A stretch of DNA of 64,000 nucleotides. It comes from Clostridia bacterium. Lineage in GTDB: Bacteria > Bacillota > Clostridia > Oscillospirales > Acutalibacteraceae. Both the position numbers and the translations under genes were made by a program. The stretch is taken from assembly GCA_017439585.1 (NCBI GenBank), contig JAFSIV010000001.1, positions 14,614 to 78,613 of the forward strand. Reading direction: 5' to 3'. Below are positions 39,185 through 49,891 of this stretch, in pieces. Below the pieces are notes generated by a model. It saw nothing but the letters and a program-made list of their open reading frames with translations, ran no database searches and was not told where the DNA came from. How positions within the stretch are numbered: position 1 is the first letter of the stretch; each line of letters begins with the position of its first letter.

Positions 39185-40402
39185 ATGGAATTTAATAACA
39201 TTAATTTTGATACATATTTTAAAAACTATCCCGATAAAGACGGTTATTTCGGTAAATACGGCGGTTGCTATATTTCACCCGAGCTTGCAAATGCTATGAG
39301 AGAAATAACCGAAGCATATTTTTCAATTTGCCAATCAAGAAAGTTTATAAATGAACTTCGCAGAATAAGAAAAGAATTTCAGGGCAGACCAACTCCCGTT
39401 TCTCACCTTGAAAGGCTTTCCAATAAATACGGTAATGTTCAGCTATATGTTAAGCGCGAGGATTTAAATCATACCGGCGCTCACAAATTAAATCACTGTA
39501 TGGGCGAGGCTTTGCTTGCTAAATATATGGGTAAGAAAAAGGTTATTGCCGAAACAGGAGCCGGTCAACACGGTGTAGCATTAGCTACCGCTGCGGCTTA
39601 TTTCGGTTTAGAATGTGATATTTATATGGGTAGCGTTGATATTAAAAAACAAGCCCCTAACGTTGCCAGAATGAAGATTTTAGGCGCTAATGTTGTTGAG
39701 GTTAAGGAAGGTCTTGCAACCTTAAAGGAGGCAGTTGACGCTGCTTTTGACGCTTATGCTAAGGAATATAAAGATTCTATTTACTGCATAGGCTCGGTTT
39801 TAGGACCTCATCCATTTCCAATGATGGTGCGCGATTTCCAAAGCGTTGTTGGTATTGAGGCTAGGGAACAGTTTATGGATATGACAGGTCATTTACCGGA
39901 TGCTATTGTTGCTTGTGTTGGCGGTGGTTCTAATGCCGCAGGCTTCTTCTCAGGCTTTTTAAATGACCATGTAGATATTTACGGTATCGAACCCTTAGGC
40001 AGAGGTCCAAAGCTTGGAGACCATGCCGCTAGCCTTAAATACGGCACCGAGGGAATTATGCATGGCTTTAACAGTATTATGCTTAAAGACGAAAACGGAG
40101 AGCCCGCACCTGTTTACTCGGTTGCTAGCGGTCTCGATTATCCTTCCTCCGGTCCTGAACATGCATTTTTAAGAGATATAGGCAGAGTTAAATATGATGT
40201 TATAAACGACGAGGAAACTATTGACGCTTTCTATGAATTAGCTCGTTTAGAGGGTATTATTCCCGCTATCGAAAGCTCACACGCAGTAGCATACGGAATT
40301 AAGCTTGCAAAAACTATGGAAAATGGCTCTGTTCTTATAAATCTCTCGGGCAGAGGCGATAAGGATATGGACTATATCATAGAAAACTACGGTATTAGAT
40401 AA
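39185..40402 (+). CDS. trpB: tryptophan synthase beta chain (stand-alone)
   Basis: FGKYGG, PLP-lysine motif [16 protein letters not shown] and GGGSNAAG. 405 aa. No trpA or other trp genes adjacent. Confidence 0.9.
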
Positions 40403-40438
40403 TATCTATAAAAATTTCGCAAAATTCTAAAATTTTGC

Positions 40439-40467
40439 TTGACTTTATTCGCGACTTGTCTTATAAT
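40439..40467 (+). promoter_or_regulatory. sigma-A promoter of the tRNA-Thr/tRNA-Leu unit
   Basis: TTGACT (40439-40444), 17-nt spacer, TATAAT (40462-40467), about 22 nt upstream of the tRNA. Confidence 0.6.
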
Positions 40468-40488
40468 ACATAAGTCGCGAATAAATAT

Positions 40489-40564
<76 letters not shown>

Positions 40565-40592
40565 TAAATCTTGTTGGGTTTCAACAAGATAC

Positions 40593-40679
40593 GCCGATGT
40601 GGTGGAATAGGCAGACACAAGGGACTTAAAATCCCTCGGTAGCAATATCGTAACGGTTCAAGTCCGGTCATCGGCACCA
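40593..40679 (+). tRNA. tRNA-Leu (anticodon TAA), long variable arm, CCA encoded
   Basis: Acceptor gccgatg/catcggc, anticodon stem aggga/tccct with loop ct-TAA-aa, class II variable arm, GGTTCAAGTCC T-loop, then 3' aCCA. 87 nt. Confidence 0.9.
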
Positions 40680-40680
40680 A

Positions 40681-40713
40681 AAAACACTCGTTCTCTTGAA
40701 CGAGTGTTTTTTT
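40681..40713 (+). terminator. intrinsic terminator of the tRNA unit
   Basis: aacactcgttc-tctt-gaacgagtgtt followed by ttttt. Confidence 0.85.
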
Positions 40714-40715
40714 AT

Positions 40716-40879
40716 CCATTGAGAAAGCAATGGCATATCATCAACGATAGCAACGCTATCGTTGTATCTCATCAGTCCGTTAGGACTGTATATCATCACG
40801 CTTTAGGCGTGTATCAAAAATACTTTCGCAATGATGATATACAAAACTTCGTTTTGATGACATACAATGCTTCGCATTG
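40716..40879. repeat. array of six short hairpins separated by a conserved 8-mer (TATATCAT direct, ATGATATA inverted)
   Basis: Hairpins at 40716-40733, 40742-40764, 40773-40788, 40797-40811, 40842-40856 and 40865-40879. Spacers at 40734-41, 40765-72 and 40789-96 (direct), then 40834-41 and 40857-64 (reverse complement). See findings. Confidence 0.7.
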
Positions 40880-40925
40880 ATTTTTTGCCGCTTTTGTGCT
40901 ATAATACATCCAATGTGGTGATGTT

Positions 40926-41729
40926 ATGTTTTTGACAAAAAAGAGTTTTAGAAAAATTTTGATTATGGCGATATGTTTTTCTTTATTAGGAAGCATTTTT
41001 ATTGCTTTTTCAATTCTTTTTAACATTATGAATATATCGGATAATTCTTTATTGATTTCAGGAATAATAATTTATTTGCTTAATGTACTTATGATTTTTT
41101 TAAAGCTATATGACGAGGGTAAGGGCAAACTTATTATTCTCGCAAATAAACTTGTCCGTAAAAAATTAAAACCCGCTGAATTTATTCTACATTATGAATC
41201 TTTGAAAAAATCAAATGACCTTATTATTAAAAAACCAAGTATAAAAGTATTGCAATTTGTTGCGCTTGCTTATGATTCGTTAGATGATAGAGAAAACGCA
41301 CTTGCAACAGTTGATGAAATGATTGAAATTTCCAATGAAAAGAGAAAACCTTTCTCAAATCTTATAAAATGCTCTTTCTTGTTTTCTTATGGGGAATTTG
41401 AAGAAGCGGAATTGCTTTTTAATAAAACACAGAAACAAAAACTAAATATTATGTGTAACAGCTTAGTGGATGCCATTTTAAATAGTGATAGAGCAATGGC
41501 TATGGGCGATTATAAAACAGTAGAAGCATATAGTTTAAGAATGTTAGAACGCTCGTTTCCAAAGCTTGATAATCTTGGTAAACTTGTTGTCCATTATACG
41601 TTGGGCAAGGTTTATGAAAAATTACAAGATAACAGCAAAGCGATTACGAATTATCAATATTGTGTAGACTTTGGTGGAGAAACAGCAATAAAGATAACTG
41701 CCATCAAAAAATTACAACATATTAAATAA
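40926..41729 (+). CDS. hypothetical membrane protein with helical-repeat (TPR-like) C-terminal domain
   Basis: Two N-terminal TM segments, then alpha-helical repeats (ALAYDSLDDRENALATVDEMIEI..., YTLGKVYEKLQDNSKAITNYQYCVD). Promoter TTGATT-17-TATAAT with TGn lies at 40877-40905. Confidence 0.5.
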   Translation: MFLTKKSFRKILIMAICFSLLGSIFIAFSILFNIMNISDNSLLISGIIIYLLNVLMIFLKLYDEGKGKLIILANKLVRKKLKPAEFILHYESLKKSNDLIIKKPSIKVLQFVALAYDSLDDRENALATVDEMIEISNEKRKPFSNLIKCSFLFSYGEFEEAELLFNKTQKQKLNIMCNSLVDAILNSDRAMAMGDYKTVEAYSLRMLERSFPKLDNLGKLVVHYTLGKVYEKLQDNSKAITNYQYCVDFGGETAIKITAIKKLQHIK

Positions 41730-47809: not shown

Positions 47810-47813
47810 TTGC

Positions 47814-48019
47814 ACGATAGAGGTGCAGTTTGTCATTAGTATTTCGCCGTTTAGACGAACAGGTCTGCGAAAGAAAGGGGCAACTGCCGAAATAATAGAT
47901 TTTCTGTTCAGGATTTATTATTGGTTTGCAGCAAAATATGTTGCAGACTGTCACGTTCAGTGGAGAGCTATCGGGATTTTTTAAATTACCGTGATTGCTC
48001 TGTTGCATTCACGGTTTTT
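47814..48019 (+). promoter_or_regulatory. lysine riboswitch (L-box) with terminator expression platform
   Basis: Conserved L-box blocks GATAGAGGTGC, GCGAAAGAAAGGGGCAACTGCCGAAA and CTGTCAC...TGGAGAGCTATC (P1 gatag/ctatc). Followed by terminator accgtgattgc-tctgtt-gcattcacggt plus TTTT (47988-48019). Confidence 0.85.
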
Positions 48020-48043
48020 ATAATTTTAAAAAGGAGTTTTAAA

Positions 48044-49891
48044 ATGAAAAGACTTAAAAAACCGCTTTTAGTCATTATGTTGGCTGTTTTACTTAGTGTT
48101 ACCTCTGCTTTTGTTTTCAATGCAGCAGCAACTTCTGACAAGGCATCCGAAACCAAACAGTCTCCCGAATTTACAGTACATATTGATGACGGTGAGAACG
48201 ACCCCGAAGATATTGTTTACAATTTCTACTTGGAAGAGGAGAGCGAAGATATCGGTTCTGCTCAGGATTATGTGAATGACTATGAAAACAATATCACATA
48301 TGACCCTGATTTTAAAGAGCATCAAAAGGAAGCTTTAGGATTAGTTCGCGGCTCGATTAAATCCTATGCTACCATTTGGTCTTTATTACCCGCAGTTATG
48401 GCTATTGTTTTAGCATTAATAACAAAAGAAGTTTATTCTTCATTATTCCTCGGTATTTTAACCGGTGGTTTGATTTATTCAGGATTTAATCTTGAAACCA
48501 CAATGACTCATGTATTTAGCGACGGATTTGTAAGCAGTGTTGCTGATTCATATAATGTTGGTATTTTGATATTCTTAGTATTGCTTGGCGCAATCGTTGC
48601 TATGATGAACAAATCGGGCGGTTCCGCCGCATTTGGCAGATGGACTTCAAAGCACATAAAGAGCAGAGTTGGTGCTCAGCTTGCAACAATTTTACTTGGC
48701 GTTTTGATTTTCGTTGACGACTATTTCAACTGCTTAACAGTAGGCTCTGTTATGCGTCCTGTAACCGATAAATCTAAGATATCTCGCGCAAAGCTTTCTT
48801 ATTTAATTGATGCTACTGCCGCTCCAATTTGTATTATTGCTCCTATTTCTTCTTGGGCTGCTGCGGTTGTTGGCTTTGCAAAAGGCTCAGGCGCACAGGA
48901 CGGTATGTCGCTTTTCATTAATGCGATTCCTTTCAACTTCTATGCGCTCTTAACCATTGCTATGATGATTTTCTTAGCACTTGCTAAGTTCGATTACGGC
49001 CCGATGAGAAAGCATGAAGAAAATGCTAAAAACGGCGATATTTTCACCTCTAAAATGCAGGAAGCAACCGAACTTCTTACAGAAAACGAAAAGGGCAAAG
49101 TATTTGACCTTATAATCCCTGTTATTGTTTTGATTATAGCTTGCGTTTTCGGTATGATTTATTCAGGCGGTTTCTTTGCTTCTGATTCTTCATCATATAT
49201 GAACTTCATATCCTCTTTCTCAGGCAGTGATGCTTCGGTTGGTTTGGTATATGGTTCATTTATTGCCTTGATTTTCTCGGCTGTATATTTCCTTATCAGA
49301 AGAACTATTTCTTTCAAAACTATTATGGAATGTATTCCCGAAGGATTTAAAGCAATGGTTCCTGCTATCATGATTTTAGTTTGCGCTTGGACCCTTAAAG
49401 CAATGACCGATAGCCTTGGCGCTAAAATATTTATTGCTCAGTTAGTTGAGGGAAGTGCTAGCGGATTTATGTCCTTCTTGCCCGCAATAATCTTCATTAT
49501 TGCAGTTGGTCTTTCTTTTGCAACCGGTACTTCTTGGGGAACATTTGGTATCCTTATTCCGATTGTTCTCAGCGTATTCGGTGCAGAAAACGGAAATATC
49601 ACAATCGTTGCTATCTCTGCTTGTATGGCTGGTGCTGTTTGCGGCGACCATTGTTCACCCATTTCAGATACAACCATCATGGCTTCCGCAGGTGCGCAAT
49701 GCGACCATATTAACCACGTTTCAACCCAAATGCCTTATGCGCTAACAGTTGCGGCTGTTTCGTTTGTAAGTTATATTATTGCAGGATTTGTTCCTGTTTG
49801 GTATATCTCTTTACCAATCGCTTTGGCTCTAATGATTGGAACATTGTTTGTTATAAAGCTAATCTCAAATAAAAAATATCAAGAAAATTAA
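48044..49891 (+). CDS. Na+/H+ antiporter NhaC-family transporter (candidate lysine transporter)
   Basis: ATG at 48044 follows AAGGAG; the ORF-track start at 47921 lies inside the riboswitch. 12 or more TM segments of NhaC type, preceded by about 100 aa of signal/TM plus an acidic extension. Confidence 0.8.
   Translation: MKRLKKPLLVIMLAVLLSVTSAFVFNAAATSDKASETKQSPEFTVHIDDGENDPEDIVYNFYLEEESEDIGSAQDYVNDYENNITYDPDFKEHQKEALGLVRGSIKSYATIWSLLPAVMAIVLALITKEVYSSLFLGILTGGLIYSGFNLETTMTHVFSDGFVSSVADSYNVGILIFLVLLGAIVAMMNKSGGSAAFGRWTSKHIKSRVGAQLATILLGVLIFVDDYFNCLTVGSVMRPVTDKSKISRAKLSYLIDATAAPICIIAPISSWAAAVVGFAKGSGAQDGMSLFINAIPFNFYALLTIAMMIFLALAKFDYGPMRKHEENAKNGDIFTSKMQEATELLTENEKGKVFDLIIPVIVLIIACVFGMIYSGGFFASDSSSYMNFISSFSGSDASVGLVYGSFIALIFSAVYFLIRRTISFKTIMECIPEGFKAMVPAIMILVCAWTLKAMTDSLGAKIFIAQLVEGSASGFMSFLPAIIFIIAVGLSFATGTSWGTFGILIPIVLSVFGAENGNITIVAISACMAGAVCGDHCSPISDTTIMASAGAQCDHINHVSTQMPYALTVAAVSFVSYIIAGFVPVWYISLPIALALMIGTLFVIKLISNKKYQEN

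Follow-up and report, generated by a model that had tools for sequence, protein, structure and literature searches.

The locus and its hairpin array

We analyzed a 64,000-nt stretch of DNA (the window) from the metagenome-assembled genome (MAG) of an uncultured member of the Clostridia (GCA_017439585.1, contig JAFSIV010000001.1, Acutalibacteraceae). Between a Thr-Leu tRNA operon and the gene for a TPR membrane protein, the window carries a row of small palindromes separated by a constant 8-nt word, which we call the linker. This region, positions 40679-40886, belongs to a dispersed family of modular hairpin-linker arrays with two-fold symmetry, of which it is a slightly decayed copy. The features of the locus are as follows, with the hairpins of the window copy numbered H0 to H5.

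40439-67: sigma-70 promoter upstream of the tRNA operon
40489-564: tRNA-Thr, first member of the Thr-Leu tRNA operon
40593-40679 (+): tRNA-Leu(UAA), identified by ARAGORN and Rfam tRNA; it ends the operon and is the upstream partner of the array
40679-40712: bidirectional intrinsic terminator (A6 tract, 15-nt arms, T7 tract; inverted repeat I1, 100% complementary)
40707-40717 (+): left boundary, T7-ATCC, kept as TTTTTTATCC in nearly all relatives
40716-40733 (+): H0, ccattg-agaaag-caatgg, a perfect palindrome
40734-40796 (+): left array, comprising CATATCAT (40734-41), H1, TATCTCAT (40765-72), H2 and TATATCAT (40789-96)
40742-64 (+): H1, a perfect palindrome with a 10-bp stem
40773-88 (+): H2, a perfect palindrome
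40797-40811 (+): H3, cacgc-tttag-gcgtg, whose stem sequence is kept in many copies
40812-40822 (+): A/T-rich spacer, a degenerate linker that begins TAT
40823-40833 (+): centre, CTTTCGCAATG, which as reverse complement matches the 5' arm and loop of the consensus H0, with one mismatch in the window
40834-40864 (+): right array, comprising ATGATATA (40834-41), H4 (40842-56) and ATGACATA (40857-64)
40865-40886 (+): right boundary, the terminal hairpin H5, caatgc-ttc-gcattg (40865-79), plus ATTTTTT, overlapping the -35 box
40877-40905 (+): outward sigma-70-type promoter, TTGATT (40877-82), 17 bp, then TGcTATAAT with the -10 at 40900-05
40926-41729 (+): TPR membrane protein gene (267 aa), downstream context

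A first-pass annotation of this DNA had reported six perfect palindromes and five 8-mers here, and all were found where it placed them. Its anatomy was also right: variable hairpins of the form CA...TG, a constant, oriented 8-mer or 12-mer, and a dyad near 40820. It had missed that the T7 tract and ATCC at 40707-40717 are part of the conserved element, and that the centre, which it called non-palindromic, is complementary to the 5' arm and loop of H0. The overlap that it saw between H5 and the -35 box is real, and H5 is the terminal hairpin of the family, which in relatives also occurs with the promoter module where this type of array is missing. Its statement that the element contains no open reading frame (ORF) is not literally true, as two mechanical ORFs overlap it, one of 58 aa (40704-40880, +) and one of 70 aa (40814-41026, -). 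However, units in relatives range from 19 to 31 nt (19-31 nt) without keeping to multiples of three, and no reading frame is therefore conserved across the array.

Such a pattern might arise by chance, through AT-rich words and small palindromes that happen to cluster, and one of two frequency checks agrees with this: the exact 8-mer occurs five times in the 64-kb window against 3.4 expected, which is no enrichment. The other check came out differently, with 17 window sites for the 12-mer TGTATATCATCA at up to two mismatches against 6.2 expected, a total reached by 0/100 shuffles; five of these 17 sites fall within the 135 bp at 40732-40866. Folding, suggested by the first-pass annotation, gave the array region a far better fold than shuffled sequence on either strand (z = -5.1 and -6.0). 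When the 64 kb was searched with a covariance model built from a single half of the array, one locus matched, the array itself, once per strand: the right-half model scored 58.6 bits at 40823-40911 and 51.5 bits at 40708-40807 (-), i.e. on the left half. Rfam has no match to the array, even at E <= 10 in 40300-41100. Together with the more than 100 homologous copies and their covariation, described below, the shuffle test refutes the chance cluster, to which we give next to no credence.

Family anatomy, structural selection and strand

A collection with one genome per species was scanned with a degenerate pattern of two direct linkers and one inverted linker. This search for hairpin units in related genomes, another proposal of the first-pass annotation, gave at least 120 matches. 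All counts on relatives rest on the matches listed, and loci are labelled L plus a number. Apart from about five chance matches, those listed are all in MAGs of the Acutalibacteraceae, Oscillospiraceae/Ruminococcaceae, Christensenellaceae and unclassified Clostridia/Eubacteriales, and the array-bearing MAGs come from the guts of ruminants and other animals. Thus, this is a family of gut Clostridia, of the Oscillospirales and Christensenellales. Some genomes carry two or three copies, on a single contig or on several.

The consensus order is a terminator (A-tract, hairpin, T-tract), ATCC, H0, s1, H1, s2, H2, s3, H3, a short A/T spacer, the 11-nt centre, s3', H4, s2', H5, s1', the terminal hairpin and ATTT, where s denotes a linker. 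Left-half linkers read TATATCAT and right-half linkers read ATGATATA. H0 comes in several types, among them CCATTGC-GAAA-GCAATGG and CCAAGCC-GACA-GGCTTGG. Unit number varies between copies; the modal form has three linkers in each half (3+3). Measured against this consensus, the window has 3+2 linkers, its right half being one unit short (the usual CAATTCC..GGAATTG hairpin plus linker), and its H0 carries a C-to-A change relative to CCATTGC-GAAA-GCAATGG that leaves a shorter stem and one mismatch with the centre. At the other extreme, L135 (1-300) has 12 direct units with two alternating, near-identical hairpins (caccgcaggtg and cagccgcatggctg), which is evidence for a recent tandem amplification by unit slippage.

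All of the approximately 118 arrays parsed among the matches listed are convergent, with direct linkers followed by inverted ones. The scan pattern is biased to this state; however, the window and L014, both found without the pattern, are convergent too. L014 is an independent relative reached by protein homology alone, being one of six loci returned when metagenomes were scanned with the single TPR protein, and its TPR orthologue shares 59% identity. Its layout agrees with that of the window copy: TTTTTTTATCC and H0 come first, followed by three direct linkers, an H3 that has the cacgc/gcgtg stem of the window, a centre and two inverted linkers. The AAC and TTC loops are shared with the window, and the other stem sequences are wholly different. 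We also considered whether the array is an invertible segment between the 11-nt inverted copies formed by the H0 half and the centre. This seems unlikely, since inversion would yield a uniform array and every copy seen, most of them through the biased pattern, is convergent.

The stems covary strongly in relatives, in answer to a test that the first-pass annotation had proposed. Forty canonical copies display 22-30 distinct hairpins per position; nevertheless, at variable stem positions each arm pairs with its own partner at 0.88-0.99, versus 0.38-0.65 when arms are swapped between copies. In an alignment of 33 right halves (A1), covariation was tested on the two hairpins that align cleanly. 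Paired cells made up 98.2% versus 72.6% in shuffles, double-change cells numbered 96 versus 20.9 and the covariation score was 0.68 versus 0.16; the observed values were reached by 0/500 shuffles, and slid controls collapsed. The same holds for H0 and the centre: in 67 of 101 distinct copies the centre is complementary without a mismatch to the 5' arm and loop of H0, whereas permutation gives 20 on average and 33 at most. Five or more types of H0/centre pair covary, loop nucleotides included.

The linkers behave differently. Their variants are position-specific, with s3 mostly TATCTCAT and s2' mostly CATATCAT, and they do not covary between the halves: where s3 is mostly TATCTCAT, its supposed partner is TATATCAT in 33/40 copies. 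A rod built of linker-linker helices is thus without support. The same result counts against the long spacer-spacer stem with hairpin branches envisaged by the first-pass annotation, which does appear in the minimum-free-energy fold.

We assessed strand preference using 334 parsed inter-linker hairpins, read on the plus strand of the window. Left-half stems have 17 G·T/T·G pairs and just 4 A·C/C·A pairs, and the loops (GAA, 30 cases; GTCA; GCA; GTTA) follow the pattern GAA, GCA or GNNA. In the right half, A·C pairs outnumber G·T pairs 8 to 3, and the loops are TTC (54), TGC (20) and TTGC, complementary to those on the left. Each half is therefore optimized on the strand where its own linker reads TATATCAT, which makes the element two-fold symmetric, and the right-half covariance model matches left halves on the opposite strand. 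Because compensatory change maintains the stems, the hairpins must fold as single strands; because the halves are optimized on opposite strands, no single transcript holds all the hairpins in the better orientation. C-GNA-G triloops are seldom seen in RNA families but are well known from DNA, where they form minihairpins of very high stability. The opposite-strand halves and these triloops lead us to lean towards a single-stranded DNA (ssDNA) form, or towards read-through RNA that enters from either side. The ssDNA-binding reading of the first-pass annotation is thus viable given the strand asymmetry of the halves.

A different view of the same data is that the array is a structured noncoding RNA of the class of Gut-1, either a small RNA (sRNA) or a trailer processed from the 3' end of the tRNA operon, whose UAUAUCAU linkers and hairpins would bind a protein or RNA. 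Gut-1 (RF01706) is a motif recorded as occurring in human gut sequences and, in its text and supplement entries, classed by its discoverers as likely RNA (Weinberg et al. 2010; PMC2864571); it is related to the arrays described here. Strong stem covariation and G·U-type pairs are what such an RNA would show, the complementarity of H0 and centre could form a long-range helix or an alternative structure, and on the minus strand the array followed by the terminator has the layout of an sRNA body and its terminator. Set against this are the optimization of the halves on opposite strands, the lack of a match to any Rfam family, the position of the array, boxed between a terminator and an outward promoter, and the lack of a conserved promoter of its own on either strand (see below). 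The dominance of C-GNA-G triloops, typical of DNA minihairpins, is a further point against it. We consider such an RNA unlikely.

Terminators, promoters and neighboring genes

Among the 86 copies with enough upstream sequence, 46 have a same-strand tRNA that ends 27-43 nt before TTTATCC, with only a terminator between. Overall, 53% of copies come directly after a tRNA or tmRNA gene. More than 20 anticodon types are represented among these tRNAs, and arrays also follow tmRNA (L030, L045 and L089) and an rRNA-5S-tRNA operon (L090). The terminator hairpin is present in all related copies inspected. The small hairpins of the array lack T-runs, and only the left-hand 40679-40712 part fits the definition of an intrinsic terminator, namely a G+C-rich hairpin with a T-run behind it, which is bidirectional when an A-run precedes it. 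One family of terminator hairpins (TTCGACAAGTTTCGACTTGTCGAA, 11 loci) adjoins six different tRNAs and tmRNA, and a second (7 loci) adjoins six tRNAs. The terminator hairpin thus belongs to the dispersed unit and travels with the array. Where the tRNA is absent, behind unrelated protein genes, other copies follow a conserved segment of approximately 50 nt (TCCTCGGTTTTCAGGCACATTTCATTCGTGTCATTAAGTTCAAACTACCCA), which precedes the terminator and array at L090 (2110-2160), L108 (three copies), L047 and L113. The segment has no Rfam match and looks like a decayed 3' part of a tRNA. TTATCCA at the left boundary resembles a DnaA box, a possible lead.

On the downstream side, 35 of 95 copies have a TTGATT -35 box that is made up by the last hairpin together with ATT, and (TGc)TATAAT stands 17 bp beyond it, in the same register as in the window. 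A near-identical promoter and leader module (CTTTTATGCTATAAT-ACAYCCAAGGCGGTGA-n3-8-ATG) precedes many unrelated small genes in these MAGs; it is found at 40890-40925 in the window, four times in 2 kb at L048, and at L064, L108 and L173, and its repetition gives these regions a cassette-like look. When well conserved, the module is always preceded by some dialect of the array, be it TATATCAT, ATTTCAT, ATATCAC, ATGCATCAT or a hairpin-free GTAATAAG/CTTCAC dyad. At L176, L178 and L108, the terminal hairpin and promoter module occur without an array of the TATATCAT type. We found no conserved promoter for the array on either strand; apart from the outward promoter read in reverse, the flanks have no consistent -10/-35, and a minus-strand sRNA promoter was rejected for this reason. 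This inspection bears out the placement of the element in the first-pass annotation, between a terminator and a promoter and without a promoter of its own.

The fixed register of these 35 promoters, and the overlap of the last hairpin with the -35 box, would suit a multi-site operator at which a transcription factor binds double-stranded 12-mers to control the promoter of the TPR gene, as the first-pass annotation had suggested. However, the downstream genes, of which 72/84 are co-oriented, are mutually unrelated across approximately 85 loci, the Pfam matches among the neighbors are diverse, and the same promoter and TPR gene also occur with a Gut-1-type array or with none. Moreover, the spacing of the sites is variable and not helically phased, and binding to double-stranded DNA leaves the perfectly compensated palindromes between the sites unexplained. 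An operator of this kind is very improbable. Since the TPR gene sits behind other array types or none, and since the downstream genes are unrelated, the array is not an operator of the TPR gene. Thus, the array does not act as the operator of one particular gene, nor is it an sRNA gene of the conventional kind with its own promoter.

The TPR gene itself is context only, with no functional tie to the array. Its orthologues (L009 and L172-L178) lie in at least eight genomic contexts, including after glgB, rpoC and tRNAs and among small hypothetical genes. It stands behind a Gut-1-type array in L172 and L176, and L178 keeps just the terminal hairpin and promoter. In these respects it behaves like an accessory cassette gene. 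All-against-all clustering of 500 neighboring ORFs revealed no protein family enriched within 4 kb of the arrays, the top 'cluster' consisting of spurious ORFs across the arrays themselves; nor was any integrase, integron integrase or transposase-like family enriched within that distance. A module of the form GAGTTCGAATTCATACG..AAAAA..GATATCTTTTTTGTAGCCCATAGAC follows both TATATCAT-type and Gut-1-type arrays (L108 2020-2070, and the right flanks of L030, L067, L026, L045 and L098) and looks like a decayed tRNA or tmRNA 3' end with a decayed terminator. Elsewhere in the window, a lysine riboswitch (RF00168, 101.8 bits) lies at 47810-47978 (+), upstream of a 656-aa ORF at 47921-49891.

Several loci bear signs of recombination. 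At six of them an intact tRNA and terminator are followed by a 130-190-nt insert, a duplicated tRNA 3' fragment, a second terminator and the array. Duplicated tRNA 3' ends are seen in L041, L044, L062, L070, L090, L096 and L097, most copies being without them; in L096 the terminator and array (ca. 220 bp) lie between perfect direct copies, 21 nt long, of the tRNA 3' end. A few loci have tRNA 3' repeats 0.2-1.6 kb downstream. A cognate tRNA 3' repeat directly after the array was found in just 2/75 copies and was dropped as a general right boundary. Paralogous copies within one genome share their right halves, and their left halves differ by compensated changes. Two copies in L108, at 942 and 3279 (oriented minus-strand coordinates), pair an H0 of 'gcag' with the centre 'ctgtcgg' and an H0 of 'gacag' with the centre 'cctgcgg'; these swapped types imply a crossover between copies inside the left half. 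The first-pass annotation had offered a scar of recombination at tRNA-Leu, which is partly apt. Copies do stand at many tRNA and tmRNA 3' ends, but what stands there is a conserved, structured module and no scar.

These signs would also fit a non-autonomous mobile or integrative module, in which the linkers serve as arm- or end-type sites, or a folded strand is used as in integron attC sites, and a recombinase or transposase acting in trans inserts the terminator and array, with or without promoter and cargo gene, at tRNA/tmRNA 3' ends and other terminators. The occurrence of one terminator-array unit beside many tRNAs and tmRNA, the L096 repeats, the six loci with a duplicated fragment after the insert, the decayed tRNA-like fragments before arrays at non-tRNA sites, the several copies per genome and per contig, and the TPR gene with its promoter in at least eight contexts behind different dialects all favor it, and three inverted sites per arm resemble transposon ends or attP arms. 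Against it stand the lack of an enriched integrase or transposase gene nearby, the rarity of a cognate tRNA repeat right after the array, the absence of target-site duplications and classical terminal inverted repeats (the linkers do show dyad symmetry), and the 19-31-bp unit spacing, which is out of phase with the DNA helix. Compensatory differences between copies in the same genome point to long-term structural selection instead. Furthermore, phage and plasmid collections searched with the element by blastn held no match, and a viral scan for two direct 12-mers found just unrelated tandem repeats. The full pattern has four true copies in IMG/VR, all at contig ends beside tRNAs, and these are uninformative on phage origin. 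The array centre is not tRNA-like. On balance, we regard a mobile module as unlikely, if marginally less so than an RNA of the Gut-1 class.

Gut-1, other known systems and the proposed role of the arrays

Twenty related loci were scanned with Rfam, where the gathering threshold of Gut-1 is 50 bits. Matches to Gut-1 were obtained in L048 and L108 and, among these 20 loci, only on GTGAAAT-type arrays. The L108 match (63.7 bits) begins directly after a tRNA and terminator and is followed by inverted ATTTCAC units (34 bits on the other strand); thus, this Gut-1-type array has a dyad architecture like that of the window element. Likewise, the Gut-1 seed contains GUGAAAU and GUGAUAU linkers, and its member BAAZ01025322.1 lies directly after a tRNA and terminator.

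Gut-1 is the closest known system, and the two kinds of array have much in common. Both are rows of short, variable hairpins with conserved 7-8-nt A/U-rich linkers of the word family RTGAWAT/ATWTCAY, which the window linker word ATGATAT(A) fits. Both come immediately behind a terminator, in many cases one that ends a tRNA gene (BAAZ01025322.1; L108, L072 and L172), both have direct linkers in the first half, inverted ones in the second and a terminal hairpin complementary to the centre, and both are found in the same genomes, at times side by side. The right half of the window copy (hairpin-ATGATATA-hairpin-ATGACATA-hairpin) has the three or more short hairpins with RUGAWAU linkers by which Gut-1 is recognized, and a covariance model of the window type detects Gut-1-type halves weakly (27.8 bits, E = 0.004). 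In contrast, the RF01706 model has no match at gathering score in the window and none at E <= 10 in 40300-41100 or on a TATATCAT-type copy in L090, and approximately 20 other copies score below its gathering threshold. The linker here is TATATCAT/ATGATATA, not GTGAAAT or GTGATAT, and the ATATCAT half comes first in the window and about 100 relatives, whereas the RTGAWAT half comes first in Gut-1 arrays. Judged by sequence and layout, the window element is a sister of Gut-1 and not a member of it. Rfam models just one half of Gut-1, as an sRNA, and the dyad, the link to a terminator or tRNA and the promoter junction are not described in the Gut-1 text and supplement entries (PMC2864571). The literature searched on the motif and on palindromes downstream of tRNA genes held nothing relevant beyond Weinberg et al. 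(2010); absent from it are the terminator/tRNA linkage, the strand-specific dyad halves, the H0-centre complementarity, the promoter junction and the existence of multiple dialects.

Arrays with other linker words, of the Gut-1 type and others, fill the same position between terminator and promoter. In L009 (2460-2560), L173 (1755-1840), L177 (ca. 2330-2440) and L178 (ca. 2340-2420) this slot holds a hairpin-free dyad whose left arm is pyrimidine-rich and G-poor (CTTACC/CTTCAC) and whose right arm is purine-rich (GGTAAG/AGTAATAAG). It is a possible third dialect and resembles a Rho-utilization site on transcripts from either side. The ParB boxes of phage P1 parS are ATTTCAC (boxA) and TCGCCA (boxB), which the Gut-1 linker and first hairpin (ATGAAAT-TCGCC / ATTTCAC; L072 227-398, L108 1822-2004) resemble, a possible lead.

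Among other known systems, repetitive extragenic palindromes (REP) and the bacterial interspersed mosaic elements (BIME) built from them are comparable in position. They too are extragenic, lie at the 3' ends of transcription units, form arrays of palindromes with conserved inter-palindrome motifs in alternating orientation, vary in unit number and have proposed roles at terminators, in supercoiling or at RNA ends; the arrays described here always follow a terminator, and their linkers flip orientation at the centre. However, in REP, as defined in PMC3733652, the palindrome is conserved and carries a GTAG or CGTC tag, whereas here the palindromes vary, the linker is conserved and there is no such tag. 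REP and BIME also occur in high copy number alongside a cognate RAYT (Y1 transposase) gene; in the single contigs covered per genome, no RAYT gene was seen near the arrays, and several genomes contribute two or three copies. The strong preference of the arrays for stable-RNA genes is a further difference.

The BOX elements of Streptococcus pneumoniae and the Correia elements of Neisseria are likewise small (ca. 100-250 bp), non-coding and modular, with partly complementary ends; BOX has a variable number of internal boxB modules, and Correia elements can supply outward promoters. They differ in their conserved module sequences, their terminal inverted repeat and target-site duplication features, the lack of a preference for tRNA terminators and the lack of variable, compensated mini-hairpins between constant words. 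The arrays share with integron attC sites a variable part in which structure is conserved over sequence, short conserved flanking words, strand-specific features that suggest a folded single DNA strand, and an association with variable accessory genes. Unlike attC, they have no R/L boxes (GTTRRRY) and no extrahelical bases, they have many perfect mini-hairpins in place of one long imperfect one, no integron integrase is found among their neighbors, and the cassettes here bear their own promoters. Arm arrays of attP sites and the ends of Mu and Tn7 have two or three short oriented repeats per arm, inverted relative to each other; an attP-like reading is further suggested by the tRNA/tmRNA 3' ends, the occasional duplicated tRNA 3' ends and a 12-mer that starts TG and ends CA. 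An attP or attL site of a tRNA-integrating element has a core identical to the tRNA 3' end between its arm sites, an integrase gene, and direct repeats of that end on both sides. Unlike attP, there is no tRNA-like core between the arms, no recombinase gene and a choice of more than 20 different tRNA targets, and a model of attP or transposon ends leaves the compensated hairpins unexplained. A CRISPR array alternates a constant 24-48-nt repeat, often a palindrome, with unique spacers that are not palindromes, and all its units face the same way. In the arrays described here it is the variable part that is palindromic, whereas the constant part measures 8-12 nt and is no palindrome; moreover, the orientation flips. 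Miniature inverted-repeat transposable elements have terminal inverted repeats, target-site duplications and near-identical copies within a genome; here the linkers show dyad symmetry, there is no target-site duplication, the L096 copy is flanked by the 21-nt repeat of the tRNA 3' end, and copies within a genome share the right half and differ in the left half. The first-pass annotation had held the pattern to be unlike CRISPR, REP/BIME or attC; to call it unlike anything known would be too strong, because its architecture is that of Gut-1.

We tentatively favor the interpretation that the array is a REP/BIME-like extragenic boundary module that has spread with its terminator by recombination at tRNA 3' ends, and we put its likelihood close to, if short of, even. 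Such a module would mark the border between an RNA gene under very heavy transcription and the transcription unit that follows it, and would work on either DNA strand once that strand is single-stranded, or on RNA that reads through from one side or the other. Its conserved linkers, which are free of G and contain UCAUCA, would be displayed between the hairpins as the recognized part and would be bound by some factor. Spreading would occur by recombination at tRNA 3' ends or at terminators.

Several points weigh against a boundary module. A boundary or insulator function is pure inference, and the strict conservation of the linker word, with its position-specific variants, implies a specific partner. 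About 19/86 tRNA operon ends in these genomes are without an array, and the counts behind the strand asymmetry are small (25 versus 7). The scan pattern itself demanded the convergent arrangement, so that other arrangements may have escaped. Finally, the opposite order of linkers in Gut-1 arrays argues against models in which the proximal half must face incoming RNA polymerase; it is neutral for ssDNA or symmetric-complex models.

More broadly, the hairpin-linker arrays of the TATATCAT type, Gut-1 and the further dialects could form a new class of two-fold symmetric genome-punctuation elements that work as folded single strands, a generalization that we hold to be possible though more doubtful than not. 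Such arrays may mark the junction in the Oscillospirales where the terminator of a stable-RNA gene or cassette gives way to the next promoter. They may function there as bidirectional insulators of transcription or topology, with the G-free UC linkers loading a termination factor on read-through RNA; alternatively, they may be attC-like recombination sites of a system of promoter-carrying gene cassettes that targets tRNA/tmRNA 3' ends.

Gut-1, an orphan motif since 2010 known from gut metagenomes, is thus one dialect of a larger family with a defined grammar (a tRNA, tmRNA or rRNA terminator, a dyad array and a promoter). The family occurs in the genomes of more than 100 species of gut Clostridia, organisms that are abundant but mostly uncultured. 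What was an unexplained RNA motif can now be framed in hypotheses open to test, namely a boundary or insulator, an ssDNA signal or a cassette recombination site, and the sequences to use in pull-downs and reporter assays are precisely defined. Should the arrays prove to be insulators or recombination sites, they would be useful engineering parts for these organisms and would help to explain the build-up of accessory genes beside tRNA genes.

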